Shown: positions 30,197 to 57,552 of the stretch, piece after piece
Position numbering within the stretch: position 1 is the stretch's first letter
How the letters are laid out: each line of letters opens with the position of its first letter
Origin: Chitinophagaceae bacterium
Lineage (GTDB): Bacteria > Bacteroidota > Bacteroidia > Chitinophagales > Chitinophagaceae
Length of the DNA: 64,000 nucleotides
Reading direction: 5' to 3'
Assembly (NCBI GenBank): GCA_044226045.1
Contig: JBGAHR010000002.1
Coordinates: forward strand, 97,059-161,058
The notes under the pieces: generated by a model
Database searches by the model: none
Told to the model about the DNA's origin: nothing
The model's input: the letters and a program-made list of their open reading frames with translations, nothing else
Position numbers and translations under genes: made by a program

Positions 30197-30206
30197 TTTT
30201 GTAAAG

Positions 30207-31259: not shown

Positions 31260-31266
31260 CGAATGG

Positions 31267-31385
31267 CGTTTATCGTTTATCGTTTTACGTTTCACGTTGA
31301 TCGTCCTGAAGAAACATGCCAATAATCATCAGGCAACAAATACAAGAAGCAACGATAAACCTGAAACAATAAACGCTAAACGCAA
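31267..31385. repeat. Heptamer inverted-repeat element (same family as 7137-7270)
   Basis: gcgtttatcgtttatcgttttacgtttcacgttg ... caacgataaacctgaaacaataaacgctaaacgc. Confidence 0.82.
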
Positions 31386-36182: not shown

Positions 36183-36210
36183 AATAAATATTGTGTTTCG
36201 CTTCTGAAAA

Positions 36211-36783
36211 TTATTGTTGTTCGAGATGCCTGATGATGCGCAATCTGTAAGGTTCGAGATCGCCCACCGGCTGGTTCTCGATCTTGGCTTCCTCATCCCA
36301 CAGGCGCATCTGTATGATTTGATCAAAAAGAGGATCTGATTCAAAAGCCTTCGCTTCTTCGGTTTCCATTCTTCCCCCCTGGAATTCCAGCGTTTTCCTA
36401 CTGGCTTCCGACAATTGTTCGTAGTAGTCGGGCTTCTTCCATGTAAGATAACGCTTGGCATCTACATGTGACTCCACGAGGCGGATTAACTTTTCCGAAA
36501 ATCCGTGATCACGCAGATAGGCTGCGCCCACTGCTTCGTGATCAATGGTTCCAAATCCGTCCATCTGCGCATGCGTGTCGGCACTTACGCAGATGTGACC
36601 GATATCATGCAAGAAAGCAGCGAGTATTACTTCATCATCGTACCCCTGTTTCAGCGCCAGTTCTCCCGCCTGGTACATGTGTTCCAGTTGTGTTACTTTT
36701 TCTCCGGCATATTCCTGACCGCCATAATCACTGAACATGGTTAGGATGCGATCGGCTATCTCGGCGGCTTGTAAATGATTCAT
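36211..36783 (-). CDS. phnZ: HD-domain phosphonate oxygenase, PhnZ-like
   Basis: YAGEKVTQLEH, LHDIGH, HEAVG, HVDAKRYL and RLWDEEAK match the PhnZ diiron ligand pattern. Confidence 0.8.
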   Translation of the reverse strand: MNHLQAAEIADRILTMFSDYGGQEYAGEKVTQLEHMYQAGELALKQGYDDEVILAAFLHDIGHICVSADTHAQMDGFGTIDHEAVGAAYLRDHGFSEKLIRLVESHVDAKRYLTWKKPDYYEQLSEASRKTLEFQGGRMETEEAKAFESDPLFDQIIQMRLWDEEAKIENQPVGDLEPYRLRIIRHLEQQ

Positions 36784-36787
36784 GAAA

Positions 36788-37858: not shown

Positions 37859-37870
37859 AAAACAAATTTT

Positions 37871-37901
37871 AAAAAAGGGCGGAACCTGGACAAGTTCCGC
37901 C
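37871..37901 (-). terminator. Intrinsic terminator-like hairpin between susD and the AlkP gene
   Basis: Minus strand GGCGGAAC TTGTCCAG GTTCCGCC CTTTTTT. Confidence 0.72.
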
Positions 37902-37957
37902 GTTCGATTTAAACTGCTCGATTGCTATTGATTTGCCCGAGATCGTTGATGAATATT

Positions 37958-39535: not shown

Positions 39536-39555
39536 TTTCTGATCGCTTGTTAAGT

Positions 39556-42500
39556 TTAGAAAGTGAGATTGATGTTCACACCGAATCGACGGGTGGTTGG
39601 TGTTTGCAAATCGGAGCCGGCAGCCTGTGTGAACTGATCAGGATCCACGTCTTTGTATTTCTTGGGGAAGAAAAGCAACAGGTTCCTTCCTACAAATGAT
39701 ACTTCTGCTTTGCGAATGAAAGATTTGCCGAGAACGGAAGCCGGTAATGAATAGGTCAATGTCACTTCACGCAGTTTGGCAAATGTTTTATTGATGATAT
39801 TCAATTCCTGGATGCCTGCATACCGGCTTGCATAGTTCTGAACGGAAGTAGACTTTGTATTGGGAGCTACAGTCAGATCTTTGTAGTTGGTGATCTCACC
39901 GGTAATAGGATCAAGGATGATGTTGCCTGTAAGGGTGATGCCTGGTTGAACCAATGAACCTGCACCTACGTCATCGGGTCTGTGTTCACCCCAGAGGCCG
40001 GTAGCTGTTTCCAGGTGTCTTCCGCCCTGCAGTGTTTTCTGGCGAACATAATCATGAAATACACCACCTACTACTCCGTCAAACTGGAAGCTCAGACGAA
40101 AATCTTTATAGCTGAAGCTGTTGGTAATACCCCATGACCAGTCCGGATCGGCTTCTCCAAAAATTCTTCTGGCGCTGCCCTGTCCGGCATCTCTGAAACG
40201 CATCAGCAATCCATCGGATCCATGAACGAGCTGGCCATCGGGTGTACGGATGAATCCTTCACCATAGATCAGATCAACCGGAGAACCGTCCTTGCTCCAT
40301 GCATCGGGGTTCGGATGTTTTACCCAGCGACGATCGAATGTAGACCAGTTAGCTCCTACATTCCAGGTAAAGTTCTTGGTGCTGATGGCAGTACCTGTTA
40401 AAGAGATTTCCCAACCGCGGTTACGATAGCTGCCATAGTTGGCAATGATGCTGCTGTATCCGGATGCGGGAGAAATGATGTCTGTACGATTGTACAGCAA
40501 TTCTGACTTGGAATTGAACCAGGTTACGTTCAGGCCCAGTCGATTCTTGAAGAAACGGAGGTCGGCGCCGAGCTCAATGGTCTTTTTGTTGTCGGCTTTC
40601 AGGGTTGAATCCAGCAGACCGTCGGCATAGCTCGCTCCGAGTTCGTTGTTGTAAGTACCGCTGTTGCTGATGTTATAACCGATAGAAGTCAGATCATAAA
40701 TACCCATATTGATCGGGGAATAGTAGTTCTGACCATAACCCTGACCGGTACCGAATCCGATATTGGGCTGCGCGATGTTTGCATAGATCTGTGCGCTTCT
40801 GCCCTGTGCATAAGAGCCTCTCAATTTCAGGAAAGTGAGCTGTGATGGCAGATTCAAATAATCCGACAAAACAGTAGAGGCGCCAAAAGAAGGATAGAAA
40901 TAAGTGTTATTGCCTTTGGGCAAACTGCTGGCTTTATCCAAACGACCGGTGGCATTCAGTGTCAGGTATTTTCCCAAACCAAAATCAAAGGAATAGTAAC
41001 CACTGATGAACAGGTTCTCCAAAGCAACGGAGGCGGCTTTACCCGGACGCAAGGTATTGGCAAGCGTGTACAGTCCTGGTACACTCAGGTAATCGGTTGA
41101 AGCGAAACTTCCGTTATAGCGCGCGTTACGCACGTTTCCTCCCACAAATCCATCCACCGTAAGAAAATTCTGGAAGAATTTGCTGGCGTATTTAACCTGC
41201 ACTTCGTTATTTGCTTCGAAGAAAGTGCGGCTGTCTTCGCGATAGTCTCCCAGTCTTTCGTCGCGACCATAGGCACCGGCCGATACCGGCATCTTCTCCT
41301 GGCGGAAAATGTTATAAGTAGAAATACCCGGACGGTACATGAACTCAAAGTCTTTCGCAAACTTCCAGTTCAGGGACACATAACCATATACGTCGTTTTT
41401 ATAGTGCGGACGCAACCATTCATACACCATGAACCAGGGATTGTTGTAACGCTGGTATTCTGCATAAATCTGCTGTGTTCCGATTTTGCCCGGCTGCCAA
41501 TAATTGCGCATATCATCCATGCTCCAGTCTGCACCAGCCCAGATCACCACGTTATAGATCATACTGTTCGGACCATAGTTTACGTCCGGGAAATTGGGAG
41601 AGTACTGACGGCTGTAATTGATATCAGCGGTAACTTTCAGTTTGCTGCTGAAAGTGTAGCCGGCGCTCAGGTTGAAGTTGGTTGTATTGAGGGCCATATT
41701 GGGAACGATGGCCTTCTGATAAGTATGTCCTACCCCGAAACGCAAATCATACTTTTCCCCACTCGCTGCAACAGCAATGTGGTTGGTGCTGAGGATACCG
41801 GTATTCAGGAATTTTTTGAGGTTGTCTTTTCCACGAGCGATCCAGGGCGTGGGAATGATATTACCGGTAAACTTGGAACCATCACCGAAGGTGGTTACGT
41901 AAGTGTTACCCGGATCCACTTTACCGTCATACTGAGGGATCAACTGTCCATCGAAGCGGGGACCCCATACATCATAGTCGTTGTCGTTCACACCGCCACC
42001 AACACCATCTTTAAAGGCATACTTGCCTCTTGAACCCGGGCCGTACTGATCCTGGTAGATCGGGAAAGCCAGGAAGCCTTTATCAAACATGGTGCTTGAG
42101 TTGAACTCGATGGAGAATCCGCGTTTGTCTTTGGTGCCTTTCTTTGTATTGATAACGATCGCTCCATTACGGGCAAGGCTGCCATACAGGGCGGAAGCTG
42201 TTTGTCCTTTCAGGAAGGTGTAACTCTCGATGTCATCGGGGCTGATATTCCAGGTATCTGTAGTAATAGGAACACCATCCACTACGAACAGCACATTTCC
42301 TTCTCCACGGAAATTGATGGAAGGCTGACGCAACAGTTCGTTGTTGATGTTCACTACCAGGCCTGCCACTTTACCTTTCAAACTGTTGATGGCATTGGGT
42401 TCACGTGCTTTCACCAGCTCCGCAGTCTTCACTTCCTGGATAGAATAGGTGAGTCTTTTGGATTCCTTTTTAATACCCAGCGCTGTTACCAGCACTTCAC

Positions 42501-42825
42501 TCATCGAACGGGGATCCTGTTCAAGAGAAATTACATAGGTATTGTCATCACCGATCGTGAGTTCGGTCTTCTTGATACCTACCCCACTAAACACCAGCAC
42601 ATCGCCGGATTTAGCATTAATAACAAATGTCCCTTCGGCTGAAGTAGACACACCGGACTTGCTGTCCTTAATCATTACGGAAACACCGGGAATACCGGTT
42701 TGATCTTTGGAAGAAATGGCCTTACCAGAAATCAGTCTTGTAGCCTGTGCTTGTACAAGAAAAGGAATGGCCATCAGAAAAAACAAAGCCACCCATCTTC
42801 CAGGGGCGTGTCGAAACGCTGGCAT
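39556..42825 (-). CDS. SusC/RagA family TonB-linked outer-membrane protein
   Basis: VTALGIKKE, LFVVDGVP, PDDIESYTFLKG..ASALYGS.A.NGAIVINTKKG SusC signature; C-terminal Phe. Confidence 0.95.
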   Translation of the reverse strand: MPAFRHAPGRWVALFFLMAIPFLVQAQATRLISGKAISSKDQTGIPGVSVMIKDSKSGVSTSAEGTFVINAKSGDVLVFSGVGIKKTELTIGDDNTYVISLEQDPRSMSEVLVTALGIKKESKRLTYSIQEVKTAELVKAREPNAINSLKGKVAGLVVNINNELLRQPSINFRGEGNVLFVVDGVPITTDTWNISPDDIESYTFLKGQTASALYGSLARNGAIVINTKKGTKDKRGFSIEFNSSTMFDKGFLAFPIYQDQYGPGSRGKYAFKDGVGGGVNDNDYDVWGPRFDGQLIPQYDGKVDPGNTYVTTFGDGSKFTGNIIPTPWIARGKDNLKKFLNTGILSTNHIAVAASGEKYDLRFGVGHTYQKAIVPNMALNTTNFNLSAGYTFSSKLKVTADINYSRQYSPNFPDVNYGPNSMIYNVVIWAGADWSMDDMRNYWQPGKIGTQQIYAEYQRYNNPWFMVYEWLRPHYKNDVYGYVSLNWKFAKDFEFMYRPGISTYNIFRQEKMPVSAGAYGRDERLGDYREDSRTFFEANNEVQVKYASKFFQNFLTVDGFVGGNVRNARYNGSFASTDYLSVPGLYTLANTLRPGKAASVALENLFISGYYSFDFGLGKYLTLNATGRLDKASSLPKGNNTYFYPSFGASTVLSDYLNLPSQLTFLKLRGSYAQGRSAQIYANIAQPNIGFGTGQGYGQNYYSPINMGIYDLTSIGYNISNSGTYNNELGASYADGLLDSTLKADNKKTIELGADLRFFKNRLGLNVTWFNSKSELLYNRTDIISPASGYSSIIANYGSYRNRGWEISLTGTAISTKNFTWNVGANWSTFDRRWVKHPNPDAWSKDGSPVDLIYGEGFIRTPDGQLVHGSDGLLMRFRDAGQGSARRIFGEADPDWSWGITNSFSYKDFRLSFQFDGVVGGVFHDYVRQKTLQGGRHLETATGLWGEHRPDDVGAGSLVQPGITLTGNIILDPITGEITNYKDLTVAPNTKSTSVQNYASRYAGIQELNIINKTFAKLREVTLTYSLPASVLGKSFIRKAEVSFVGRNLLLFFPKKYKDVDPDQFTQAAGSDLQTPTTRRFGVNINLTF

Positions 42826-42870: not shown

Positions 42871-42937
42871 CGAAACTATCGAGTGCGTATTAAGCGAGGT
42901 TTATCGGAAAATGAATGAATACTTAACGAAATGTTAT
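42871..42937 (-). promoter_or_regulatory. susC promoter: -7 TAGTTTCG plus five 11-bp-periodic Pho-type hexamers
   Basis: Plus-strand hexamers at 42888 TATTAA, 42899 GTTTAT, 42910 AATGAA, 42921 ACTTAA, 42932 TGTTAT. Confidence 0.72.
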
Positions 42938-42969
42938 GTAAAAATATCCGCACACGTTTGCGTAGTGAT

Positions 42970-43025
42970 TTAAAACAACGGTAACCTGCTGTTCATATTC
43001 AGTACACAATTAATAAGCTACTTTG
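42970..43025 (+). promoter_or_regulatory. plcP-like gene promoter: four phased hexamers plus -7 CTACTTTG
   Basis: 42970 TTAAAA, 42981 GTAACC, 42992 TTCATA, 43003 TACACA; -7-like box at 43018-43025. Confidence 0.62.
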
Positions 43026-43041
43026 TAAAACCCAACTCCGC

Positions 43042-43875
43042 ATGGAAAGACGCGCTGTAGATGTAGTCGTTATTTCTGATGTACACCTTGGAACATTCGG
43101 CTGTCGTGCCAAGGAACTGGTGGCTTACCTTAAAAGCATCAATCCAAACATTCTTATTCTGAATGGGGATATCATTGATGGCTGGCAGTTCTCCCGAAGA
43201 TATTTCCCTGCCACTCATATGGCGGTCATCAAAGAAATACTGAACCTGATGATGAAAGGAACAAGAGTGTTCTACATCACCGGTAATCACGATGAGCTTC
43301 TCCGCCGATACACCGATTTCAACCTGAGCAATTTTACCCTGACCGATAAACTGGTGCTGGAGATCAACAACAAGATGACCTGGATCTTCCATGGCGATGT
43401 ATTCGACAACACCACCAAAGGAAGCGCCAAACTATTGGCCAAACTGGGAAGCAATGGATACGGAATGCTCATCCTTTTCAATCGCGCGATAAACTCTTTA
43501 TTGAAGCTCGTTGGCAAAGACCCTGTTTCTATTTCCAAAAGTATCATGGCCAGTGTAAACAAGGCTGTTACCAAGATCAACGATTTTGAACAGATTGCCG
43601 CCGAACTGGCCATCGAAAAAAAATTCGATTATGTGATCTGCGGACATATTCACCAGCCACAGCAAAGAGTAATAGAAACAGAACAGGGCAAGGTCACTTA
43701 TCTGAACAGCGGCGACTGGGTAGAACATTTAACAGCCCTCGAATATCATCACGATACCTGGAAAATCTTTACCTACAACGAAAAGGATTTCGAACATACC
43801 GCTATTCAGTTTGAGGCGAATCCGAACGTGATGACGGACGAAATCAGTTTCTATATCAATTCACTGGCTATTTAA
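43042..43875 (+). CDS. Metallophosphoesterase of the UDP-2,3-diacylglucosamine diphosphatase/YbbF group (PlcP-like)
   Basis: SDVHLG, LNGDIID, GNHD, FHGD, CGHIH, NSGDW. Confidence 0.85.
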   Translation: MERRAVDVVVISDVHLGTFGCRAKELVAYLKSINPNILILNGDIIDGWQFSRRYFPATHMAVIKEILNLMMKGTRVFYITGNHDELLRRYTDFNLSNFTLTDKLVLEINNKMTWIFHGDVFDNTTKGSAKLLAKLGSNGYGMLILFNRAINSLLKLVGKDPVSISKSIMASVNKAVTKINDFEQIAAELAIEKKFDYVICGHIHQPQQRVIETEQGKVTYLNSGDWVEHLTALEYHHDTWKIFTYNEKDFEHTAIQFEANPNVMTDEISFYINSLAI

Positions 43876-43885
43876 ACAATCAGGT

Positions 43886-44920
43886 ATGAAAATATTTTAT
43901 GCAGTGCAGGCTACCGGAAACGGACACATCAGCCGCGCAATGGAGCTGCTGCCTTATTTACAGCAATATGGAAAAGTAGATATCTTTCTCAGCGGTGCCA
44001 ATAGTACCCTTTCACTCGACGGGCCAGTAAAGTATCGGAGCAAAGGCTTAAGTCTTTTCTACACCTGCGATGGCGGCCTTGATTATTCAAAAATTGTCAG
44101 CAATATCGCACCTCTGCGCATCATGAAAGAGGTAAGGGACCTGCCGGTAGAAAAATATGACCTGGTGATCAATGATTTTGATTGTATCACTTCCCTGGCC
44201 TGTTCCAAAAAGAAGATTCCATCGGTAAACTTCGGTCACCAGGCAAGCTTTCTATCACCCAATACCCCACGCCCGGAAAAACCCAGCCGGATGGGAGAAT
44301 GGATCTTAAAAAACTATGCCCGGGCCACCCACCATATCGGCCTTCACTTTCAATCCTACGACGACTTTATTTATTCCCCGGTGGTTAAAGAAGAAATTCT
44401 GAAAGCAACTCCATCCGATAAAGGATATATTACGGTTTACCTGCCCTCCTATTGTGATCAGCAATTAAAGAATACTTTCAGCCGGTTCTCCCAACATCGT
44501 TTCGAAATCTTTTCTCATCAAAAAAAGGAAATTACGTTTGAAGGTAATATTCGCTGGCTTCCGGTAGACAGGCATCAATTCAACCGCAGCCTGATTAACT
44601 GTCATGGAATTATTACCTGCGGTGGGTTTGAAACGCCTGCGGAAGCCCTGTATCTTCAAAAGAAAATCATCTCCATTCCCATCCAGGGTCAGTACGAACA
44701 GCAATGCAATGGCGCGGCATTGGCCAGGCTGGGCGTTCCCGTTCTCTCCAAAATCACCGACGACTTCGATGATCATTTCAACGGATGGATAGAACAGAAA
44801 CAATCTCCCCGGGTTACTTACGCCCATACTACAGAAGATATCATCCAAAAACTAATGCTCCGTTGCAGCAACCTCCGCTTCGAACTAGACTTCACCTATC
44901 CTGACCTGATCTTTAACTGA
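43886..44920 (+). CDS. Glycosyltransferase family protein (GT-B, MJ1255-like)
   Basis: QATGNGHISRA, LVINDF, ITCGGFETPAEALYL, QYEQQCN. Confidence 0.85.
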   Translation: MKIFYAVQATGNGHISRAMELLPYLQQYGKVDIFLSGANSTLSLDGPVKYRSKGLSLFYTCDGGLDYSKIVSNIAPLRIMKEVRDLPVEKYDLVINDFDCITSLACSKKKIPSVNFGHQASFLSPNTPRPEKPSRMGEWILKNYARATHHIGLHFQSYDDFIYSPVVKEEILKATPSDKGYITVYLPSYCDQQLKNTFSRFSQHRFEIFSHQKKEITFEGNIRWLPVDRHQFNRSLINCHGIITCGGFETPAEALYLQKKIISIPIQGQYEQQCNGAALARLGVPVLSKITDDFDDHFNGWIEQKQSPRVTYAHTTEDIIQKLMLRCSNLRFELDFTYPDLIFN

Positions 44921-44925
44921 TACGT

Positions 44926-44964
44926 ATTATTCGTATAATTCGTGTAATTCGTGTAATTCGTGTA
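44926..44964. repeat. AATTCGTGT nonamer array
   Basis: attcgtat aattcgtgt aattcgtgt aattcgtgt. Confidence 0.8.
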
Positions 44965-44965
44965 C

Positions 44966-44998
44966 AAAAAAAAGGTCCCCTGGTAGAAACCAGGGGAC
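44966..44998 (-). terminator. Minus-strand intrinsic terminator with GT-TTCT-AC loop and no upstream CDS
   Basis: GTCCCCTGGT AGAA ACCAGGGGAC perfect stem with A8 on the plus side. Confidence 0.8.
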
Positions 44999-45065
44999 AC
45001 TGTCACATGAGAAAAATTCTGATTAGATAACCAAAACGTATCATTGAATAACCAAAAGAACTACG
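44966..45065 (-). ncRNA. Candidate small RNA (about 100 nt)
   Basis: Lies between two minus-strand terminators; internal TTTTGGTTAT x2; upstream Pho-type hexamers; no ORF of note. Confidence 0.35.
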
Positions 45066-45142
45066 GGCTGCAAGTTGCAGTTGGAATGTTACTTCAACGT
45101 GAAAGACTGTTATGCTACTATTAATAGTTTCGAAGGGTCCAT

Positions 45143-45172
45143 AAAAAAACCTCCCCCGTAAAACGGAGGAGG
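45143..45172 (-). terminator. Terminator of the TBDR-lipoprotein operon
   Basis: CCTCCCCCGT AAA ACGGAGGAGG with a G-U pair on minus; A7 on plus. Confidence 0.78.
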
Positions 45173-45204
45173 CTGTACATCGAAAAAGAGTATGTGCGTA
45201 GGGA

Positions 45205-46665
45205 TTACTTACCGTTGAAAGAAGTCCAACCTTTCCACCAGGTAGCATCTTCACCAGCCGGAGCGATTGCACCACGGAAGGTTACTACTTTAAAGAAAGG
45301 ATCAGCCACTTTTGGATCAGTGAAAGCTGCGCCATTCAGGATTTTCTGGTTACCGCTTGAACCGGCAAACGGAGTAGGATCCGGAGCAGCGTAGTTGAAC
45401 GGTTGAATCAATTTAGCATCCGCAGAGTTCGTCAGGATGTCGTTGTTGTAGAAGCTGCTGGTAAACCAGGTCAGCATGCTGGCATCTGATTCGCCGGTTG
45501 GAGCGCTTCCACTTACAGAATATTTAATATTGATGGTGTTACCTGCCAGTGTAGTATTGCGGATGCGGAGCGTGCTGTCTTTGATGTTCAGATCGGTTGG
45601 TGTACCGGTGCTGGCATCGATCAGAATACCCTGTGGCCAACCCATGATGATGGAGTTGTAAATAGACAGTGCCGAGTTCCTGCGGATCTGTGCACCTGCA
45701 CGGAACAGTGAGTTACCGGCATTATTTAATGTAGCGCGGGGACCGATAGCAGTGATGTTGGAGAAAACTGCGCTGGTTTTGGGAGTAGCTGTTGTACCAC
45801 TGGCGTTGTTATCGCTCTCGAAAGCTTCCGAGGTAGAAATGTCAGCGATCAGTGAATCACGAATCACGAGACCAAACTGAACTTTTCCGGAGAAACCGTT
45901 ATCGGTATCGAAATCGTCGTCCTGTGTTTTGTAGGCAATGAGGTATTTGCAATTAACGGTACCACCAAACCATTCGTAAGCATCATCCTTTGCATAGATC
46001 ACCTGAACGTGATCGATAGTAGTGCCACTACCAACGGCAGCCAATGTAAGGCTGTTGATCTCTTTATCAGGCTGGAAGGCATAGCCGGCATATTCAATTC
46101 TTACGTATTTCAGGGTGCCTGAGTTATCGTCGGAAACCGGCGTGGGGGCCACTGCGTCGCCAGAACCGGCAAGACCATCGCCGTTGGCATTGTCGATACC
46201 ACCTTCAACCTGGTACAGTCCGTTCACACCATTGAAGCTGGTGTTGATAGGCGCTTTACCGCAAAGAACGATTCCACCCCAGTCGCCTGAGCTTGGATTC
46301 GGAGCAGCCGAAGTGAAGATGATGGGTTCGGTAGCTGTACCCACCGCATTGATTTTAGAACCACGCGTAATGATCAGAGCAGCCACATCACTTCCACTGA
46401 AGGAACCTTTAATCACTGTACCCGCTTCGATATTCATGGTATGATTGCCTACCATGTATACCAGTCCTTTCAGAATATAAGTATTCTCTTTGCGAAGCGT
46501 AGTATCGGCATTGATCCTGCCAGACAAAGTGATCGTCTGACCGGTGCTTCCACCACCAGGGCCTGGAACGATGATGATTTCTTTTTCACCATCCATTTCA
46601 ATTTTACGGCAGGCGTTGAAAGCGAGTCCTGCGAAAGCGACTAAAAACAAAATACTCTTTTTCAT
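45205..46665 (-). CDS. Uncharacterised outer-membrane lipoprotein, probable right-handed beta-helix
   Basis: Lipobox LAFNAC; repeated beta-coil patterns (SGTLKYVRIEYAG, DDAYEWFGG, DDDFDTDNG, AFESDN). Confidence 0.8.
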   Translation of the reverse strand: MKKSILFLVAFAGLAFNACRKIEMDGEKEIIIVPGPGGGSTGQTITLSGRINADTTLRKENTYILKGLVYMVGNHTMNIEAGTVIKGSFSGSDVAALIITRGSKINAVGTATEPIIFTSAAPNPSSGDWGGIVLCGKAPINTSFNGVNGLYQVEGGIDNANGDGLAGSGDAVAPTPVSDDNSGTLKYVRIEYAGYAFQPDKEINSLTLAAVGSGTTIDHVQVIYAKDDAYEWFGGTVNCKYLIAYKTQDDDFDTDNGFSGKVQFGLVIRDSLIADISTSEAFESDNNASGTTATPKTSAVFSNITAIGPRATLNNAGNSLFRAGAQIRRNSALSIYNSIIMGWPQGILIDASTGTPTDLNIKDSTLRIRNTTLAGNTINIKYSVSGSAPTGESDASMLTWFTSSFYNNDILTNSADAKLIQPFNYAAPDPTPFAGSSGNQKILNGAAFTDPKVADPFFKVVTFRGAIAPAGEDATWWKGWTSFNGK

Positions 46666-46696
46666 CTGTGTTTTTATTTGTGTTTAGAGAGTTTAT

Positions 46697-49481
46697 TTAT
46701 AATGAATAACTGAACGTGATGCCGAAAGTGGTTCCAAACTTCCTGGTGAAACGATAAGCGTCTTTCCCTTTCTGGAAGGTTGTTTTGCTGTCGGCATTCT
46801 GGTAGAAATATTGTGTCTGGTTCAGGAGATCCTGTACATTCAGCCTGATCTCAGCTTTGTTCTTCAGGAATTTCTTGGATGCCTGGAAGTCGAGCAATCC
46901 GCGGGGTGCCTCGTAAATATCAGGAGAACCCGCACCGGATGTTAAATCACCCACCAGATAAATTCTTTCGCCGATCTGGTTGAAGAGAAGCGTAAAGTTC
47001 AAACCGGCTTTCTCTACATCATACAACAAGCCGAGGTTGATCAGGTAGGGAGACTGCCCTTGCAGAGGACGATCGACCTGGAAGCCTTTGTCTTTAATAC
47101 GGCTGTAGATATAAGCGGCATTGGCCTGGAAAGTGAAGTTGCCCAATCCCTTGATGAAGTCCAGTTTCTTGCGAAACTCCACCTCAGCGCCATACGAAGT
47201 TGCTTTCTCGGGATTCTGGAAACTGAAAGTGCTTGCACCACCGCTGCCTTCATTGAAGATCTGCTCGATGGGCTTATCGAAATGTTTGTAAAATACACCT
47301 GCTGTGAGCACTTCACCCGCACGTGGATACAACTCGTAACGCAAATCGAAATTGGTTACCTTGGTACGCTCCAGGTTCGGGTTACCCTGTACAGAGGCAT
47401 TCAATTCGAAATCATAAATATTCAGGAACGACAGCTCTCTCAGTTCTGGTCTGATCACCGTTTGTGATCCCGAGAGACGAATATTGGTCTTGGCGTTGAC
47501 TTTATAAGTAGCATTCAGACCGGGCAGGAAATCGGTTACCTGTGTATGTGTGTGTCTTGGGTCGTATTTCTTTACACTTCCTACCAGCTGATCGTAGTTT
47601 TCGATACGAAGTCCCCATACCACGCGAAGTGCGTCTGTAAGCTGGTTATCCAACTGAAGGAAGCCGCCATTCAGAATGGTATTAGCGAGGTAACGGAACG
47701 TGTTTCCTTTGATGGCATCAAATCCAAACTTGTTACCGGTGCCATCACCAAAATTGGCAGGATCAAAAACCACATCGGGTGCCAGTTGACGAAGGGCGTC
47801 ATTGTCTATTGGAAGGTAGTTGGCAAAAAGTTTCGCGTCATACAGGCGGTCTTTGATCTGCAACATATAACCGCCTTTCAGTGCCTGCCCTCTGCCACCA
47901 AACATTTTGAAATTGTAAGTAAGATCACCACCTGCCGTATAGATATAGTCGCTCAGGTTCTGGTAGATACGGCTACCGCTTTGTTGTGAAAGGGTGTTGG
48001 AGATCACCAGTCTGTAAGGGTCATTGGAGCCCTGCGACTTTGAATACAGGATTCTTCTCTGATCGGGAATATAACCATCGAGGATGTTGAAAGCTCCGTA
48101 CCATTTCAGCTTAAGCGGCTTTAATATAGTGTGGTCGCCGGATGCCTGTACAGTAAAGAAGGTATTTTGTTTGAAAGTCAACTCGGGTCCTGAGAGGTCA
48201 TCATCGCGGTTGTAATCGATACCGCTCCTGCGGGTAACGTAGTTGGGAGAGTTGACATTCACAATTGATTTGATAGATATCTTGTTGAAGTTGTTCAGCT
48301 GAATGCTCAGGCTTCCCAATGCACCTACCTGCACATCCTGGATATACCGATCATCGTTGAAATTGTAGTTGGTACTGAAAACTGTTCCAGACAATGAATT
48401 GGAGCGGTTCAACAAACGGAGGTAACGATTGGTCTTATTATAAGTAACACCCAGCGTACCACCAATAGTCTTCCCAAAAAGTTTTGTATTGAAGCCCCCA
48501 TTCAATTGGAAAGAAGTATTCAGGGGAGCTGACGTTTTCTCCGGAGTCCAGGCATTCCTTAATTGCTTTCCGATGGCAGTCTTCTGTGCAGGCGTCAATA
48601 CGTCGAAGTCTGATTTAGTGGTATAGGAAGAAGGCAGACCGCGGGTGCCATCATCGATGCCCAGCCAGTCTGTTCTGCCGCCTTTGTCTTTGTAAAAATC
48701 CTTTCCAATGGTTTGTGAGTTGAAACCGGTGCCCACCTGTACATTCAAAAATCCTTTAGAGGGAATGTCTTTTGTATTCACCTGGATCAATCCGCCCGCC
48801 CATTCACCAGGATACTCTGGCACGAATGCTTTATTGATAACGATATTATCAATCATGGCTGCAGGGATCAGATCAAAAGAGAATGTTTTACGATCGGGCT
48901 CCGTACTGGAGAAAGGATACCATTCAGCATCGCCTGGTTGTAGCGATCGGCCAACCCTCTTACAATAATGAATCGTCCTTCCTGGATACTGGCACCTGGC
49001 GTACGCTTCAGGACTTCACCCGTGTTTTTATCGGGAGAACGGCGAATGGTTTCAGCAGAAATAACAGAAGCCACCGTATTGGTGTTCTTCTGGAAGGATA
49101 TCATCGAAGCGGCTGTTTCGCGGCGGGCGTTTGTTCTGTTGGCCGTAACCGTAACAGCACCCAGGTTTTTACTCGATACAGACAGCACGATATTCAGTTC
49201 GGTTACCTTTCCTTCTGCCACTTCAATTTCGTCAACCGTCTTTTTTTCGTAGCCAACCGCAGAATTCGAGGGTATATTTTTTTCCAGCCGCGAGCGTAAG
49301 CAGGAAGTTACCTTCACCGGAACTGGTAACACCTCCCGGAGCGCGGAAATTTTAATAGATACGCCGGCAACCGGTTCATTCTTTTTCATTGAGAACCTTA
49401 CCGGATATCTTGCCTGTTTTGAGAGAACGCAGTAAACGAACAAATCAACAGGGCCAGGAGTAGGAGGTAATTTTTGCTCAC
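46697..49481 (-). CDS. TonB-dependent receptor; 5' part frameshifted in this copy
   Basis: Continuous ORF 46697-48856 ending in GITFSYSL; indels near 48912, 49260, 49340 and 49385 relative to the second copy. Joining 53916-53004 to 48570-46697 gives one 2787-nt frame (928 aa). Confidence 0.8.
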
Positions 49482-49588
49482 GAGTAACTGTTTATTTGCG
49501 GCAAAAGTATCCCCGCACTGTTACCGTCCTGTTACTCCAATGTAATGGAATTGTGACCTCAATGTTACCGGAATGTTACCTGCCTGGT

Positions 49589-50888
49589 TTAGAAGCGGTA
49601 TTGCATGCGGCAGGTGAAGATATTATCGGCCAGATCGGTGGTGTAGCCGGTCAGATTGGTCTTTTCATTGTTAACAAAATGATACCAGAGCAACAGCTTC
49701 ACGTTCTCATTGATATAATAATTATAGCCCACACCATAGTTGGTATATTTAATATTAGTGGCATTCACTTTGGTTCGCCTTTCCAATATCTTTTCCCACA
49801 CTTTCGTGTTAGATCGTACCAATCCAGTTTGAACGCAAGCTGGTGATAGGTGTTAACAATGTTCTGAAGAAAATAAATAAATGCGCCGTTGAATGGACGT
49901 ATATAATAACTGGTAGCGCCCAATAATACACCGGTGTTTCGCTGGTAGCAGCACTCGAAGTTGATGCCCACCAGTACTCCCCCTGATTTCCGTGAAGCCC
50001 CACTGGTGTTTCAGTTTACGCACCTGGGCATCGAACCCGTAATATTTCGGGGATTTTAGTGCCCACATTGAGAGGAGTGAATCCACTTCAAAGGTTTCGC
50101 CGGATATGCCCTTTCGCTACCTGGTATTCGTATTTCTTACTTTGCAGAATACCGCCATTCATGGTGAGAACCCCGCTGAAACAAAAAACGCTCTTATTAA
50201 TAGGTAAGGCTTCCAGCGATTCTTCCGATATAATCCTTGTATTGATCAAACTCTCCCGGTCCGTTCAAACCCTGACCATTGAACACACCCAGGTCAATCT
50301 TGAAAAATCTAAACCGGGAGGCAGGATTCAGCTTTCAGAAGCTGACCATCGCTCCACGAAGGTCTCTTTTTCGGTTTTTCATCAATGTCTGAGGCATGCG
50401 GCCACGCTCCGGCGATTCCCGATCCGTGAAGCAAGGTTAACTTCATATCCAAAAGGACGGGCAAACACCCCTGTGGTAAAGGCAAATTGTCTCCATTTAT
50501 TTTCAAACAAACGAATCCAGGCATCCCGCACATTTACGCCTCGTTCTGTTGCATCGATCTGAAAAACGAATTGCATAAGAGGGCTGCTGGTATTGATTGG
50601 ACCTTAGATAATCGAGTCGTATCCTGCTTCGGCGAAGCACGAACCGATCATTCGAATTCGTTGCAAATCACCCCCTTCAAAAGTGCGTGCACCCCTTTGA
50701 TTGTGAAACCGGAATTGAGGCTGAATAACCACTGAAACGCAACCGGTCATATCTGTATAAATATCAAGTATCCCTTTCGCCACAGACTTGCTCGTATCGA
50801 TCATATCCATGAGAAACTGGCTTTCAGCTACTTGAACAAGCAGTAAAAACGTAATAAAGAAGTTTCAGGAGTTAACAATTGCTTCGCT
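49589..50888 (-). pseudogene. Frameshifted copy of the phosphate-selective porin gene
   Basis: Fragments match 54024-55340; start codon lost. Confidence 0.85.
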
Positions 50889-51012
50889 GTTAAATTAACA
50901 TTTCGCGCAAAAGGTAAAAGGAGCCTCGGACGCCCCGTATTAAATTGTTACCAAATGTTTCCTCTTGCCGGGTTGGTCTATTTCGACTAATCTTTGCGCA
51001 AAACTTAGTTCC

Positions 51013-51644
51013 ATGGGATTGAATTCAATCATGAAGTGCTTTACGCCAAAAGACAGGCTTTATTCTTTTTGAAGAAGTGGCAGACAATCATTTCTGCGAT
51101 GGGCAAGACCCCTCAAAAGTGGTGACAGAACCCGATTTTTGATAAAGAGCCTCCATCATCTCCAAAGTAGAAGACCTGGAACACCAGAATGATGAAATGA
51201 CTCACCGCATTTTCACCGAACTGGGTCGCAATTTCATCACATCCTCGATCGCGAAGACATTCACTACTGGCTTCAGCTCCTGGATGATATCTGCGATTAT
51301 ACCGCCACAGCACAAAAGATCAACTTCTATAAAATAAACCTACAATGATGGTATCCAGAAAATGGCCAATCTGGATTCGAGCAGGGTTCGTGACCATATC
51401 CGTACCGCGGTTGCGAACTGCGTAACATGCGCAATATGCGCAGCATTACCGATGCGCTGGTAAAGTGAATAGTATTGAAAACCAGACGGACGATATTTTT
51501 GACTGTAGCATCGACCGTTTGTTCGAAACAGAACCCGACGCGAAAGAAGTGATCAAAGAAATCTACCAGGTGATGGAAGTGGTGATTGATAAATGCGAAG
51601 ATGCCGCCAATGTAATTGAGTCCATCATCATCAAATACGCATAA
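51013..51644 (+). pseudogene. Frameshifted copy of the DUF47 gene
   Basis: Matches 55465-56112 with deletions. Confidence 0.85.
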
Positions 51645-51691
51645 TTAAGGAACAGGAAATAGATTTTCCTTTACTTCCATTTGTATTTATT

Positions 51692-52716
51692 ATGACTTTT
51701 TTCTTGTTATCATCATTGTTCCTGGCGCTGGTTTTGATTACATCAATGGATTTCGCGACGCGCCAACAAATGCCACTATTGTATCTACCAAGGTGCTGGA
51801 CCTTTTCAGGCGATTGCTATGGGCTGAATCTTCAGCTTCGCGGCTTTTTTGTATCAAAATACATCGTTGGTGAATTCAAAATCGGTAATACCCATCGCCA
51901 AACCGGTGAATGAACACTTCATTACGCTTGAAGTAATCTTTGCCGGGTTGGTAGCCTCATCGCCTGGAACCTGCTGACCTGGTGGTTTGGTATCCTTCCA
52001 GTTCGAGCCACACCTTATTGGGTGGATTCGCTGCGGCGCAGCCCTTGCCAATGCTGGTCATCTTTCAAGATGGTATCGATGTAATTAATTACGCCTGGGT
52101 GATTCCTACTTTCCTGTTCATTTTTCATGCCACTCATCGGAATGATCATTGCCTTTATCATTACGCTGCTAATCATCAATCTCTTCCGAAAAGCCAATCC
52201 TTATCGGGCTGGAGAGCTGGTTCAGAAGATTGCAGCTGGTATCTTCCGCATTGTTCAGCCTCGGCCATGGTGGTAACGATGCCCAGAAAGTAATGGGGAT
52301 CATTGGAGCAGCTTATATTTTTTATGAAAACAAAGAGGCGTAGACCTGACCTTCCTTTCACCCAATTTGTAAATACCTATAGGTGCCCTCGCCAGCTTTA
52401 CCGCCATTGCCATTGGCACCATGAAAGCGGTGGGTGAAAGATTGTAAAACAATGGGAACCCGCATTACGAAAGAACACCGCTGGAAGGCGTGAGCGCTGA
52501 AACTGCCGGAGCCTCTACCCTATTCCTGACAGGAGAAGCTGGGTATCCCCGTGAGCACTACACATACCATCAATCGATCATTGGGGTGGGCGCCACCAAA
52601 CGACTTTCTGCTGTTAGATGGGGAGTTACCATTAACCCAATGGCTGGATCCTCACCATTCCCGTAAGCGCCCTGCTCGCGGCACTGGTGTTTTATATCAT
52701 GAAACCGTTCCTGTAA
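51692..52716 (+). pseudogene. Frameshifted copy of the PiT transporter gene
   Basis: Matches 56159-57196 with indels. Confidence 0.85.
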
Positions 52717-53002
52717 ACTACAGTTACGATTCCTTTAAATTACGGATTACGAATTACGGATTACGGATTACGAATTACGGATTACGAATTACATATGGAT
52801 TATTAATTACGAATTATTTGATGTAAAAACAACCTGTCGTCCGCATTTCGTCATCTGTAATTACACTTGCTCATTGACCAATTAACCAATTGGCGTATTG
52901 CCAAATTGCATTCCATCCGTAATTCGTCATCCGTCATTCGTAATCATCATTGGCTCATTGACCAATTGGCGTATTGGCTCATTGCCTACCCATCCGTGTA
53001 CC

Positions 53003-53916
53003 CCGATGGCAGTCTTCTGTGCAGGCGTCAATACGTCGAAGTCTGATTTAGTGGTATAGGAAGAAGGCAGACCGCGGGTGCCATCATCGATGCCCAGCCA
53101 GTCTGTTCTGCCGCCTTTGTCTTTGTAAAAATCCTTTCCAATGGTTTGTGAGTTGAAACCGGTGCCCACCTGTACATTCAAAAATCCTTTAGAGGGAATG
53201 TCTTTTGTATTCACCTGGATCAATCCGCCCGCCCATTCACCAGGATACTCTGGCACGAATGCTTTATTGATAACGATATTATCAATCATGGCTGCGGGGA
53301 TCAGATCAAAAGAGAATGTTTTACGATCGGGCTCCGTACTGGAGAGAAGGATACCATTCAGCATCGCCTGGTTGTAGCGATCGGCCAACCCTCTTACAAT
53401 AATGAATCGTCCTTCCTGGATACTGGCACCTGGCGTACGCTTCAGGACTTCACCCGTGTTTTTATCGGGAGAACGGCGAATGGTTTCAGCAGAAATAACA
53501 GAAGCCACCGTATTGGTGTTCTTCTGGAAGGATATCATCGAAGCGGCTGTTTCGCGGCGGGCGTTTGTTCTGTTGGCCGTAACCGTAACAGCACCCAGGT
53601 TTTTACTCGAAACAGACAGCACGATATTCAGTTCGGTTACCTTTCCTTCTGCCACTTCAATTTCGTCAACCGTCTTTTTTTCGTAGCCAACCGCAGAGAA
53701 TTCGAGGGTATATTTTTTTCCAGCCGCGAGCGTAAGCAGGAAGTTACCTTCACCGGAACTGGTAACACCTCCCGGAGCGCCGGAAATTTTAATAGATACG
53801 CCGGCAACCGGTTCATTCTTTTCATTGAGAACCTTACCGGATATCTTGCCTGTTTGAGAGAACGCAGTAAACGAACAAATCAGCAGGGCCAGGAGTAGGA
53901 GGTAATTTTTGCTCAC
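53003..53916 (-). pseudogene. Intact but truncated 5' third of the TonB-dependent receptor (second copy)
   Basis: ORF 52927-53916 follows the TBDR to AQKTAIG, then runs into repeat sequence at the junction. Confidence 0.85.
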
Positions 53917-53936
53917 GAGTAACTGTTTATTTGCGG

Positions 53937-54014
53937 CAAAAGTATCCCCGCACTGTTACCGTCCTGTTACTCCAATGTAATGGAATTGTGACCTCAATGT
54001 TACCGGAATGTTAC
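53937..54014 (-). promoter_or_regulatory. TBDR promoter: -7 TACTTTTG plus six 11-bp-periodic TGTTAC boxes
   Basis: 53954 TGTTAC, 53965 TGTTAC, 53976 TGTAAT, 53987 TGTGAC, 53998 TGTTAC, 54009 TGTTAC; duplicated at about 49502-49579. Confidence 0.82.
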
Positions 54015-54023
54015 CTGCCTGGT

Positions 54024-55340
54024 TTAGAAGCGGTATTGCATGCGGCAGGTGAAGATATTATCGGCCAGATCGGTGGTGTAGCCAGTCAGATTGGTCTTTT
54101 CATTGTTAACAAAATGATACCAGAGCAACAGCTTCACGTTCTCATTGATATAATAATTATAGCCCACGCCATAGTTGGTATATTTAATATTAGTGGCATT
54201 CACACTGGTTCCAGCCTTTCCAATATCTTTTCCCGACACTTTCGTGTTGGGATCGTACCAATCCAGTTTGAACGCAAGCTGGTGATGGGCGTTAACAATG
54301 TTCTGAAGAAAATATATAAATGCGCCGTTGAATGGACGTATATAGTAACCTTCGGTAGCGCCCAATAATACACCCGGTGTTTCGCTGGTAGCAGCACTCG
54401 AAGTTTGAGTACCCCACCAGTACTCCCCCCTGATTTCCGTGAAGCCCCACTGGTGTTTCAGTTTTACCTGGGCATCGAACCCGTAATATTTCCGGGGATT
54501 TTTAGTGCCCACATTGGAGAGGGAGGAATCCACTTCAAAGGTTTCGCCGGCGGTGCCTTTTGCTACCTGGTATCTGTATTTGTTACTTTGCAGAATACCG
54601 CCATTCAGATATGAGAACCCCGCTGAAACAAACACGCTCTTATTAATAGGGTAAGGCTTCAAGGCGATTCTTCCGATATAATCCTTGTATTGATCAAACT
54701 CTCCCGGTCCGTTCAAACCCTGACCATTGAACACACCCAGGTCAATCTTGAAAAATCTAAACCGGGAGGCAGGATTCCGGCTTTCGAAGCTGACCATCGC
54801 TCCGAGGTCTCTTTCGGTTTTCATCAATGTCTGAGACATGCGGCCACGCTCCGGCGATTCCCGATCAGAAGAAGCAAGGTTAACTTCATATCCAAAAGGA
54901 CGGGCAAACACCCCTGTGGTAAAGGCAAATTGTCTCCATTTATTTTCAAACAAACGAATCCAGGCATCCCGCACATTTACGCCTCGTTCTGTTGCATCGA
55001 TCTGAAAAACGAATTGCATAGAGGGCTGCTGGTATTGATTGGACCTTACATAATCGAGTCGTATCCTGCTTCGGCGAAGCATGAACCGATCATTCGAATT
55101 CGTTGCAAAATCACCCCCTTCAAAAGTGCGTGCACCCTTTGATTGTGAAACCTGGAATTGCGGCTGAATATAACCACTGAAACGCAACCGGTCATATCTG
55201 GTATAAATATCAAGTATCCCTTTCGCTACAGACTTGCTCGTATCGATCATATCCATGAGAAACTGGCTTTCAGCTACTTGAACAAGCAGTAAAAACGTAA
55301 TAACAAAAAGAAGTTTCAGGGGAGTTAACAATTGCTTCAT
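54024..55340 (-). CDS. Phosphate-selective porin O/P-like outer-membrane protein
   Basis: Signal peptide; RFSGYIQPQFQ, FMLRRSRIR, VRDAW, TGVFARPFG; C-terminal YRF; context. Confidence 0.8.
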   Translation of the reverse strand: MKQLLTPLKLLFVITFLLLVQVAESQFLMDMIDTSKSVAKGILDIYTRYDRLRFSGYIQPQFQVSQSKGARTFEGGDFATNSNDRFMLRRSRIRLDYVRSNQYQQPSMQFVFQIDATERGVNVRDAWIRLFENKWRQFAFTTGVFARPFGYEVNLASSDRESPERGRMSQTLMKTERDLGAMVSFESRNPASRFRFFKIDLGVFNGQGLNGPGEFDQYKDYIGRIALKPYPINKSVFVSAGFSYLNGGILQSNKYRYQVAKGTAGETFEVDSSLSNVGTKNPRKYYGFDAQVKLKHQWGFTEIRGEYWWGTQTSSAATSETPGVLLGATEGYYIRPFNGAFIYFLQNIVNAHHQLAFKLDWYDPNTKVSGKDIGKAGTSVNATNIKYTNYGVGYNYYINENVKLLLWYHFVNNEKTNLTGYTTDLADNIFTCRMQYRF

Positions 55341-55358
55341 GTTAAATTAACATTGGCG

Positions 55359-55448
55359 CAAAGGTAAAAGGAGCCCGGACGCCCCGTATTAAGAAATTGT
55401 TACCAAATGTTTCCTCTTGCCGGGTTGGTCTATTTCGACTAATCTTTG
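55359..55448. promoter_or_regulatory. Divergent porin / DUF47-pit promoters with phased hexamers
   Basis: Minus -7 TACCTTTG at 55359-55366; hexamers 55387 TATTAA, 55398 TGTTAC, 55409 GTTTCC; plus TTG at 55417 and AATCTTTG at 55441. Confidence 0.65.
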
Positions 55449-55464
55449 CGCAAAACTTAGTTCC

Positions 55465-56112
55465 ATGGGATTGAATTCAATCATGAAGCTTTTTACGCCA
55501 AAAGACAGGGTTTTTTATTCTCTTTTTGAAGAAGTGGCAGATAATGTTTCTGCGATGGGCAAGACCCTCAAAGAAGTGGTGACAGAACCCGATTTTGATA
55601 AAAGAGCCTCCATCATCTCCAAAGTAGAAGACCTGGAACACCAGAATGATGAAATGACTCACCGCATTTTCACCGAACTGGGTCGCAATTTCATCACTCC
55701 TTTTGATCGCGAAGACATTCACTACCTGGCTTCAGCCCTGGATGATATCTGCGATTATACTTTCGCCACAGCCAAAAAGATCAACTTCTATAAAATAAAC
55801 CCCAATGATCAGGGTATCCAGAAAATGGCCGACCTGATCGAGCAGGGTTGTGACCATATCCGTACCGCGGTTAAGGAACTGCGTAACATGCGCAATATGC
55901 GCAGCATTACCGATGCGCTGGTAAAAGTGAATAGTATTGAAAACCAGGCGGACGATATTTTTGACCTTAGCATCGACCGTTTGTTCGAAACAGAACCCGA
56001 CGCGAAAGAAGTGATCAAAAAAAGGGAAATCTACCAGGTGATGGAAGTGGTGACTGATAAATGCGAAGATGCCGCCAATGTAATTGAGTCCATCATCATC
56101 AAATACGCATAA
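55465..56112 (+). CDS. DUF47 family (PhoU-like) phosphate transport regulator
   Basis: FITPFDREDIHYLASALDDICD, IENQADDIF, TDKCEDAANVI; upstream of PiT. Confidence 0.92.
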   Translation: MGLNSIMKLFTPKDRVFYSLFEEVADNVSAMGKTLKEVVTEPDFDKRASIISKVEDLEHQNDEMTHRIFTELGRNFITPFDREDIHYLASALDDICDYTFATAKKINFYKINPNDQGIQKMADLIEQGCDHIRTAVKELRNMRNMRSITDALVKVNSIENQADDIFDLSIDRLFETEPDAKEVIKKREIYQVMEVVTDKCEDAANVIESIIIKYA

Positions 56113-56158
56113 TTAAGGAACAGGAAATAGATTTCTCTTACTTCCATTTGTATTTATT

Positions 56159-57196
56159 ATGACTTTTCTTGTTATCATCATTGTTCTGGCGCTGGTTTTT
56201 GATTACATCAATGGATTTCATGACGCGGCCAACTCAATCGCCACTATTGTATCTACCAAGGTGCTGACCCCTTTTCAGGCGGTGCTATGGGCTGCGATCT
56301 TCAACTTCGCGGCTTTTTTTGTATCAAAGTACATCGTTGGTGAATTCAAAATCGGTAATACCATCGCCAAATCGGTGAATGAACACTTCATTACGCTTGA
56401 AGTAATCTTTGCCGGGTTGGTAGCCGCCATCGCCTGGAACCTGCTGACCTGGTGGTTTGGTATCCCTTCCAGTTCGAGCCACACCTTATTGGGTGGATTC
56501 ATGGGCGCAGCCCTTGCCAATGCTGGTCATCTTTCAAAAGATGGTATCGATGTAATTAATTACGCCAAGGTGATTCCTACTTTCCTGTTCATTTTCCTGG
56601 CGCCACTCATCGGAATGATCATTGCCTTTATCATTACGCTGCTAATCATCAATCTCTTCCGAAAAGCCAATCCTTATCGGGCTGAGAGCTGGTTCAGAAG
56701 ATTGCAGCTGGTATCTTCCGCATTGTTCAGCCTCGGCCATGGTGGTAACGATGCCCAGAAAGTAATGGGGATCATTGGAGCGGCTTATATTTTTTATGAA
56801 AAACAAAGAGGAGTAGACCTGACCTTCTCACAATTTGTAAATACCCATATGTGGGTGCCCCTCGCCAGCTTTACCGCCATTGCCATCGGTACCATGAGCG
56901 GTGGGTGGAAGATTGTAAAAACAATGGGAACCCGCATTACGAAAGTGACACCGCTGGAAGGCGTGAGCGCTGAAACTGCCGGAGCCCTCACCTTATTCCT
57001 GACAGAGAAGCTGGGTATCCCCGTGAGCACTACACATACCATCACCGGATCGATCATTGGGGTGGGCGCCACCAAACGACTTTCTGCTGTTAGATGGGGA
57101 GTTACCATTAACCTGCTTTGGGCCTGGATCCTCACCATTCCCGTAAGCGCCCTGCTCGCGGCACTGGTGTTTTATATCATGAAACTGTTCCTGTAA
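56159..57196 (+). CDS. pit: Inorganic phosphate transporter, PiT family
   Basis: GFHDAANSIAT, GIPSSSSH, GHGGNDAQK, GIPVSTTH. Confidence 0.95.
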   Translation: MTFLVIIIVLALVFDYINGFHDAANSIATIVSTKVLTPFQAVLWAAIFNFAAFFVSKYIVGEFKIGNTIAKSVNEHFITLEVIFAGLVAAIAWNLLTWWFGIPSSSSHTLLGGFMGAALANAGHLSKDGIDVINYAKVIPTFLFIFLAPLIGMIIAFIITLLIINLFRKANPYRAESWFRRLQLVSSALFSLGHGGNDAQKVMGIIGAAYIFYEKQRGVDLTFSQFVNTHMWVPLASFTAIAIGTMSGGWKIVKTMGTRITKVTPLEGVSAETAGALTLFLTEKLGIPVSTTHTITGSIIGVGATKRLSAVRWGVTINLLWAWILTIPVSALLAALVFYIMKLFL

Positions 57197-57218
57197 ACTA
57201 CAGTTACGATTCCTTTAA

Positions 57219-57552
57219 ATTACGGATGACGGATTACGAATTACGGATTACGGATTACGAATTACGGATGACGGATTACGAATTACGGATGACGGATTAC
57301 GAATTACGGATGTAAAAACAACCTGTCGTCCGCAATTCGTCATCTGTAATTACACTTGCTCATTGACCAATTAACCAATTGGCGTATTGCCAAATTGCAT
57401 TCCATCCGTAATTCGTCATCCGTCATTCGTAATCATCATTGGCTCATTGACCAATTGGCGTATTGGCACATTGCCAACCCATCCGTCATCCGCAATCCGT
57501 AATCCGTAATTAAATTGGCTCATTGACCAATTGACCAATTGGCAAATTGCAT
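57219..57552. repeat. Two-tier heptamer repeat field (TTACGGA/TTACGAA array, then three composite units)
   Basis: About 13 TTACG(G/A)A/TGACGGA units, then three 75-80 nt units of reverse-complement CCGTAAT/CGTCATC heptamers plus CATTGAC/CAATTGG heptamers. Confidence 0.87.

Follow-up and report, generated by a model that had tools for sequence, protein, structure and literature searches.

The core site of Bacillus subtilis PhoP, described by Liu and Hulett in 1998, is reportedly TT(A/T/C)ACA, present as four repeats at intervals of 11 bp. We analyzed a 64,000-nucleotide (nt) stretch of DNA (hereafter the window; positions 97059-161058 of contig C78) from a genome of 4.7 Mb (112 contigs, 46% G+C) whose nearest relatives place the host in the Chitinophagaceae, close to Puia. 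Four promoters in the window, those of susC, plcP, a TonB-dependent receptor gene and a porin gene, carry arrays of hexamers that closely resemble this site. As in B. subtilis, the hexamer is a near-identical, TTAACA-like sequence, repeated directly every 11 bp and usually in at least four units; the arrays are also comparable in position to the B. subtilis sites, which span the -35 region of activated promoters on the coding strand, where a regulator of the OmpR family oligomerizes along the repeats. They differ from the PhoP site in being set against a Bacteroidota sigma-A promoter (-7 box TAnnTTTG), with the proximal unit 19 nt before the TTTG, in having G as often as T at the first position of the unit, in reaching six units, and in belonging to another phylum, where the targets are genes for SusC/SusD, TonB-dependent receptors and PlcP and the site is predicted from sequence. 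The element is a known kind of site in a new case, a close counterpart of the PhoP site combined with the -7 promoter of the Bacteroidota.

PHO boxes in general comprise two to eight units, each with six conserved and five variable nucleotides, and all units face the same side of the DNA (PMC2275107). The Pho box of Escherichia coli shares with the arrays described here its 11-bp units (six or seven conserved and four or five variable nucleotides) and its position in place of the -35 element, some 10 bp upstream from the -10 equivalent; a dimer of E. coli PhoB binds it head-to-tail to activate transcription (PMC9306846, PMC2275107). The E. coli core, however, is CTGTCAT rather than KTAAYA, it usually occurs as two units, and its targets are pstS and phoA, whereas the sole PstS-like gene of the present genome has no array. 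The sites of cyanobacterial SphR and Streptomyces PhoP are likewise arrays of 11-nt direct repeats with a core and weaker extension units (PMC1906773, PMC2275107), but their cores (CTTAACCT; GTTCACC) and their promoter architectures are different.

Within the Bacteroidota, low phosphate increases PlcP, a glycosyltransferase, a PF14905 TonB transporter, a neighboring lipoprotein and PusC/PusD of Flavobacterium johnsoniae by 5-10 log2-fold (Lidbury et al. 2021, PMC8115612), and in this organism phoB and phoR share a cluster with the OprP porin (PMC8115612). The gene families of our locus match that PHO regulon, including PlcP, the glycosyltransferase, the OprP porin, the PF14905 TonB transporter, the hypothetical lipoprotein, PusC/PusD and the presence of phoBR-like genes in the cluster. 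The F. johnsoniae study measured expression and protein abundance, and the words "Pho box", "promoter" and "motif" do not occur in its text (PMC8115612); the arrays described here supply a candidate cis element. The searchable literature, whose coverage does not extend to subscription journals, yielded no account of a Pho box from Bacteroidetes, and none is given in PMC4796936, PMC9306846, PMC8115612, PMC12971839 or PMC3547664. A study of Bacteroides fragilis PhoB identified the gene by genetics only, and a study of PlcP mentions predicted Pho boxes but gives no Bacteroidetes consensus.

Hexamer arrays in register with the -7 box

The -7 box of Bacteroidota promoters, TAnnTTTG, spans -12 to -5 (PMC9723704), and we counted the offset of each unit upstream from the first T of the TTTG (or TTCG) within it. 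When the upstream DNA is written in rows of 11 anchored on each -7 box, the hexamers share a single column at all four promoters. The longest array precedes the TonB-dependent receptor/lipoprotein operon, where the box TACTTTTG (53937-53944, minus strand) is accompanied by six phased units, GTAACA, GTAACA, ATTACA, GTCACA, GTAACA and GTAACA (53954-54014, minus strand; offsets 19-74). Four phased units, TACACA, TTCATA, GTAACC and TTAAAA (42970-43008, plus strand; offsets 19-52 from TTTG), lie upstream of the box CTACTTTG (43018-43025, plus strand) that serves the operon of a PlcP-like metallophosphoesterase and a glycosyltransferase (43042-44920, plus strand), and this box is followed by a conserved tract, nAAAACC. 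The promoter of the divergent, Pus-type SusC/SusD operon (33112-42825, minus strand) has the box TAGTTTCG (42878-42871, minus strand) and five phased units, TTAATA, ATAAAC, TTCATT, TTAAGT and ATAACA (42888-42937, minus strand), at offsets of 19, 30, 41, 52 and 63 from the TTCG. In each of these three promoters, therefore, the proximal hexamer starts 19 nt before the TTTG or TTCG. At the promoter of the phosphate-selective porin O/P gene (54024-55340, minus strand; box TACCTTTG at 55359-55366, minus strand), the 19-nt slot is empty and the proximal hexamer starts 30 nt before the TTTG.

The original prediction, made from the sequence without database searches, had listed five hexamers at susC, four at plcP, six at the TonB-dependent receptor and three at the porin, all in one phase relative to a TAnnTTTG box, with the nearest hexamer 10 positions upstream of the box or, in the porin, 21. 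Re-reading all coordinates reproduced the first three counts, the phase and the distances, which correspond to gaps of 9 nt and 20 nt separating the hexamer from the TA of the box. The porin array (55387-55413, minus strand) has only two units in phase, TTAATA at offset 30 and GTAACA at offset 41; the third, GAAACA, lies 10 nt rather than 11 nt from its neighbor and is thus 1 nt out of register. Similarly, the box is exactly TAnnTTTG only at the TonB-dependent receptor and the porin. The susC box carries TTCG, and in the plcP box the TA is displaced by one position; both variants are kept in orthologues, and the TTCG form recurs in orthologous SusC promoters as TAATTTCG and TACTTTCG. With susC and plcP taken as conserved variants, all four boxes are Bacteroidota sigma-A boxes located 10-50 nt upstream of a start codon.

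Each unit is a direct repeat of six conserved and five variable nucleotides, and the units follow one another with an 11-bp period on a single strand, in the same direction as transcription. The hexamer, (G/T)TAA(C/T)A, is usually followed by (A/T)T, and this core is kept while the spacers vary. With the -7 box at -12 to -5, unit starts fall at approximately -27, -38, -49, -60, -71 and -82, and the array, whose distance from the -7 box is fixed, covers the -33 region; the proximal pair sits over the -33 position itself, where these promoters have no TTG. The arrays thus have the features of Pho boxes, with at least two units of about 6 + 5 nt at an 11-bp period in one orientation, overlapping or replacing the upstream promoter element at a fixed distance, and the expectation of direct repeats one helical turn apart across that element was borne out in strand, period and position.

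Exceptionality in this genome and conservation across the Bacteroidota

We trained a matrix solely on plcP promoters from other genomes and used it to rank 1639 promoters of this genome. The plcP promoter ranked first, the TonB-dependent receptor promoter second, the porin promoter third and the susC promoter fifth, and the probability of finding the four named promoters within the top five is approximately 2e-11. By this measure the phased pattern exceeds what chance would give. The promoter at rank 4 resembles background, scores drop sharply after rank 5, and the lower ranks contain the gene for a PafA-like phosphatase together with background-like genes (FtsY, a coiled-coil membrane protein and others). 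Counting exact matches to the consensus in this genome gave extreme four-unit arrays at period 11 only, but few of them.

For comparison with other genomes, we used 80 loci encoding PlcP homologues from Bacteroidota, and period and strand were examined with a hexamer matrix derived from the other promoters of the present genome and not from plcP. The best four-unit score upstream of the 80 plcP homologues averaged +8.2 at period 11; for periods 8-10 and 12-14 the mean was approximately -7, and the opposite strand gave -5. When 56 orthologous plcP promoters were anchored on the TTTG, sharp peaks appeared at 19, 30, 41 and 52 and weaker ones at 63 and 74, against a mean of about -9 elsewhere. 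Of 72 plcP promoters, 52 scored best at offset 19 when 12 offsets were compared (P = 4e-40, the relatives being non-independent samples), including 31 of 41 from Chitinophagales, 10 of 18 from Flavobacteriales and all six from Sphingobacteriales. The plcP and glycosyltransferase genes are adjacent in 62 of the 80 relatives.

Promoters that are not homologous to plcP were tested with a matrix from foreign plcP promoters only. Among orthologues of the TonB-dependent receptor (n = 6), the six best offsets were exactly 63, 41, 74, 52, 19 and 30. SusC orthologues (n = 9) gave peaks at 52, 30 and 19 and retained the unusual TTCG box, and phosphodiesterase orthologues (n = 9) gave peaks at 30, 19, 41 and 52. 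Genes internal to operons (glycosyltransferase, kinase and SusD) showed no pattern with the same matrix. Across as many as 80 genomes of Bacteroidota, the arrays recur with the same phase and offset at the promoters of orthologous plcP, TonB-dependent receptor, SusC and phosphodiesterase genes. The original prediction had spoken of a Chitinophagaceae Pho box; judged by the promoters compared here, the motif is instead phylum-wide, with the same geometry in Flavobacteriales, Sphingobacteriales and other orders.

A candidate PhoB and competing explanations

The genes under the arrays are annotated by Pfam and NCBIfam as functions of phosphorus acquisition or sparing. The susC operon encodes SusC, SusD, a PF01663 phosphodiesterase, an HD protein, a HAD hydrolase, a DUF5690 protein and an FAD oxidoreductase, and this gene set behind SusC/SusD (33112-37858) suggests that the compound taken up and broken down is an organophosphate or phosphonate and not a polysaccharide. 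PlcP and the glycosyltransferase are assigned to lipid remodeling, and the TonB-dependent receptor gene is followed by a gene for a 486-amino acid protein without a family match. In the same cluster lie genes for a response regulator of the OmpR/PhoB family (29513-30196, plus strand; Receiver and Trans_reg_C domains), which is the candidate PhoB, and for a short histidine kinase of 357 amino acids (30186-31259, plus strand; HisKA and HATPase domains), which is the candidate PhoR. The top NCBIfam hits of the regulator are the PhoB models TIGR02154 (239.6 bits) and NF053854 (223.6 bits), and no other regulator in the genome matches either model as well; on NF053854, the Bacteroidetes PhoB model, the runner-up scores 185 bits. 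The kinase shares its two Pfam domains with F. johnsoniae PhoR (Fjoh_0543). In 11 relatives this gene neighborhood is conserved: the regulator gene lies together with the array-bearing operons, at a few kb from plcP, and the order is p27063, response regulator, histidine kinase, (phosphodiesterase), PlcP, glycosyltransferase, lipoprotein, TonB-dependent receptor, (porin), DUF47, PiT.

We consider it likely, given the sequence evidence, that the arrays are Pho boxes, i.e., the Bacteroidota form of the PhoB operator, with the protein encoded at 29513 as the candidate regulator. The anatomy of the arrays, their statistical exceptionality in this genome and the phylum-wide conservation of their phase and offset were observed directly; from them and from the neighboring genes we infer the identity of the binding protein, including its link to the arrays, and a response to phosphate. 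Under low phosphate, the kinase (30186-31259) would phosphorylate the regulator (29513-30196), dimers of which would oligomerize along the array and recruit RNA polymerase containing sigma-A. Since the repeats are direct and on the coding strand, successive winged-helix domains would bind head-to-tail on a single helix face, and the two proximal units would stand in for the -33 element that these promoters lack. The transcription units switched on would be the PlcP-glycosyltransferase operon for lipid remodeling, the SusC/SusD operon for organophosphate uptake with its hydrolases, the TonB-dependent receptor with its lipoprotein, and the phosphate porin, at which a single dimer site would act from one turn further upstream.

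Several observations weigh against this interpretation. The regulator falls below both curated PhoB cut-offs (296.2 bits for TIGR02154 and 270 for NF053854), and the kinase falls below the PhoR cut-offs and has only a fraction of the length of the Bacteroides PhoR model. No array stands in the canonical phase at the promoter of the regulator gene, which has instead only a conserved two-unit element approximately 50-60 nt further upstream, and no array was found upstream of the sole clear PBP_like_2 (PstS-like) gene of the genome (C65:67571-68572). The susC hexamers are individually weak, each with three to five of six consensus matches, and the non-independence of the relatives limits the comparative tests. 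Finally, a genome-wide count of three-unit arrays with a TTTG at offsets 12-27 gave no excess at 19 (8 intergenic hits, compared with 2-9 at the other offsets), which indicates that the regulon in this genome consists of only a handful of promoters; as such a regulon is too small for a test that counts offsets, promoters were ranked instead.

A different OmpR-family regulator, such as one of eight other full-length paralogues, might bind the arrays, or the neighboring regulator might sense a signal other than phosphate; in either case the genes would form a separate regulon and not the Pho regulon. In favor of this view, the neighboring regulator lies below the PhoB cut-offs, the eight paralogues score 133-185 bits on the same PhoB model, the PstS-like gene has no array, and the solved structures nearest in sequence to the regulator are those of MtrA and RegX3, not E. 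coli PhoB. RegX3, however, is itself a regulator of phosphate starvation, and the regulator at 29513 leads the second-best paralogue by 38 bits on the Bacteroidetes model and stays beside the array-bearing operons in the 11 relatives. Moreover, the targets are precisely the genes that F. johnsoniae induces at low phosphate, and its phoBR occupies the same cluster (PMC8115612). We therefore regard a different regulator or signal as unlikely, although it is the most serious of the competitors to a PhoB operator.

Explanations that dispense with a dedicated factor fare worse. Rich in A/T and recurring roughly every helical turn in the manner of phased bends, the units could in principle boost promoters through intrinsic curvature or as UP-element-like DNA, but specific bases are kept (T at position 2, A at 3 and 4, C or T at 5, and A at 6) while the spacers vary freely, strand orientation is strict, and the arrays occur at phosphorus-related genes only and not at strong housekeeping promoters, making this very improbable. 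A/T-rich intergenic DNA might also have produced the pattern by chance: in A/T-rich relatives, outside plcP promoters, four-unit hits number 66-104 at wrong periods compared with 143 at period 11, and the count by offset in the present genome showed no enrichment at 19. Against an artefact of chance or composition stand the ranks of the four promoters among 1639 and the preference for period 11 alone and offset 19 alone, with P values down to 4e-40. The tests of period, offset, ranking and cross-genome recurrence together led us to reject it as scarcely credible.

Further sites, neighboring features and implications

A likely further member of the putative Pho regulon is a gene for a choice-of-anchor I (PF22494) lipoprotein on another contig, where the units ATAACA, TTTACG and ATAACA and a GATACA overlapping the box (C18:3346-3389, plus strand) have an offset of 18 before the TTTG; publications on choice-of-anchor I proteins were searched and offered nothing of use. 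The DUF47-like and PiT phosphate transporter genes (55417-57196), which are divergent from the porin gene, have a -7-like box, AATCTTTG (TTTG from 55445), but no forward array in phase. The porin units lie about 45 nt upstream in reverse orientation, and the DUF47-PiT operon may share them. The regulator gene itself has the -7 box TAGGTTTG (29487-29494), and the element upstream of it, TTAACAAATTGTAAAC (29435-29450), is off the canonical phase and conserved in relatives L012, L014 and L021; it may serve autoregulation or control of the divergent gene at 27063-29279, which encodes a 738-amino acid protein without a family match and is always next to the regulator gene. Behind the PstS-like gene on C65 lies an open reading frame of approximately 557 amino acids that is unannotated. 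Tandem heptamer repeats (CGTAATC, CGTAATT and CGTTTAT-like) occupy intergenic DNA at 52730-52960, at 57215-57550 after PiT and at 31260-31300 before the gene at 31495, and the same repeats precede the PafA-like phosphatase gene at C108:84201. Rfam gave no match within the window.

The region of the TonB-dependent receptor is present twice in the assembly. Positions 48570-52997 are a direct tandem copy (~4.4 kb) of 53003-57486, 94.2% identical, and the two differ by 86 substitutions and 108 insertion or deletion events; most of these events are 1 bp long, half lie in homopolymer runs, and they are concentrated in the interior of copy 1. In copy 1 the porin, DUF47 and PiT genes are frameshifted remnants and the TonB-dependent receptor gene is split; removing 4433 bp restores an intact receptor of 928 amino acids, and relatives carry a single copy of the region. 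The duplication is probably an assembly artefact in which uncorrected long-read sequence was wrongly joined in. The receptor promoter cited in the original prediction, with an identical box (TACTTTTG, 49509-49502) and six-unit array (together 49502-49579, minus strand), lies in this noisy copy, and the trustworthy copy is that at 53937-54014 used above.

Elsewhere on the contig, outside the window, the genome scan found its strongest array not associated with phosphorus genes, CTAACA, ATAACA, GTAACA and GTAACA (C78:17128-17193, minus strand), upstream of dnaB (C78:15446-17023). It is as strong as the arrays of the Pho promoters. In 11 aligned genera, a conserved box, TATATTCG (consensus; a -7 box of the TAnnTTCG type), is found about 17 nt upstream of the dnaB array, placing the array within the early transcribed region. 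Arrays at this position reach 20-30 bits in 5 of 20 genera of the family and are weaker in approximately four more. The dnaB leaders match no Rfam family, and a consensus RNA fold of the leaders has no covariation support. About 100 nt upstream of the array, at a switch in gene orientation, are three DnaA-box-like 9-mers spaced by 21 nt (17271, 17292 and 17313); dnaA is on a different contig. That the same regulator also acts directly on chromosome replication through the dnaB array is possible but doubtful, and a PhoB operator that represses dnaB or acts at an origin is not established, though worth testing. If PhoB does bind the dnaB array, starvation for phosphate would act directly as a brake on the supply of helicase, or on origin firing, in Chitinophagaceae.

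Bacteroidota play a major part in recycling organic phosphorus in soil, in the rhizosphere and in water. The low-phosphate regulon of F. johnsoniae has been measured, and the DNA element that defines it is not given in the literature we searched. The mechanism proposed here is that of textbooks, and the value of the element lies in mapping and tool-building, not in a new concept. A KTAAYA unit with an 11-bp period and a fixed offset from the -7 box would let Pho regulons be predicted across the phylum, including the numerous hypothetical lipoproteins and TonB-dependent receptors, and a defined element would also permit the building of phosphate-responsive promoters for Bacteroidota.

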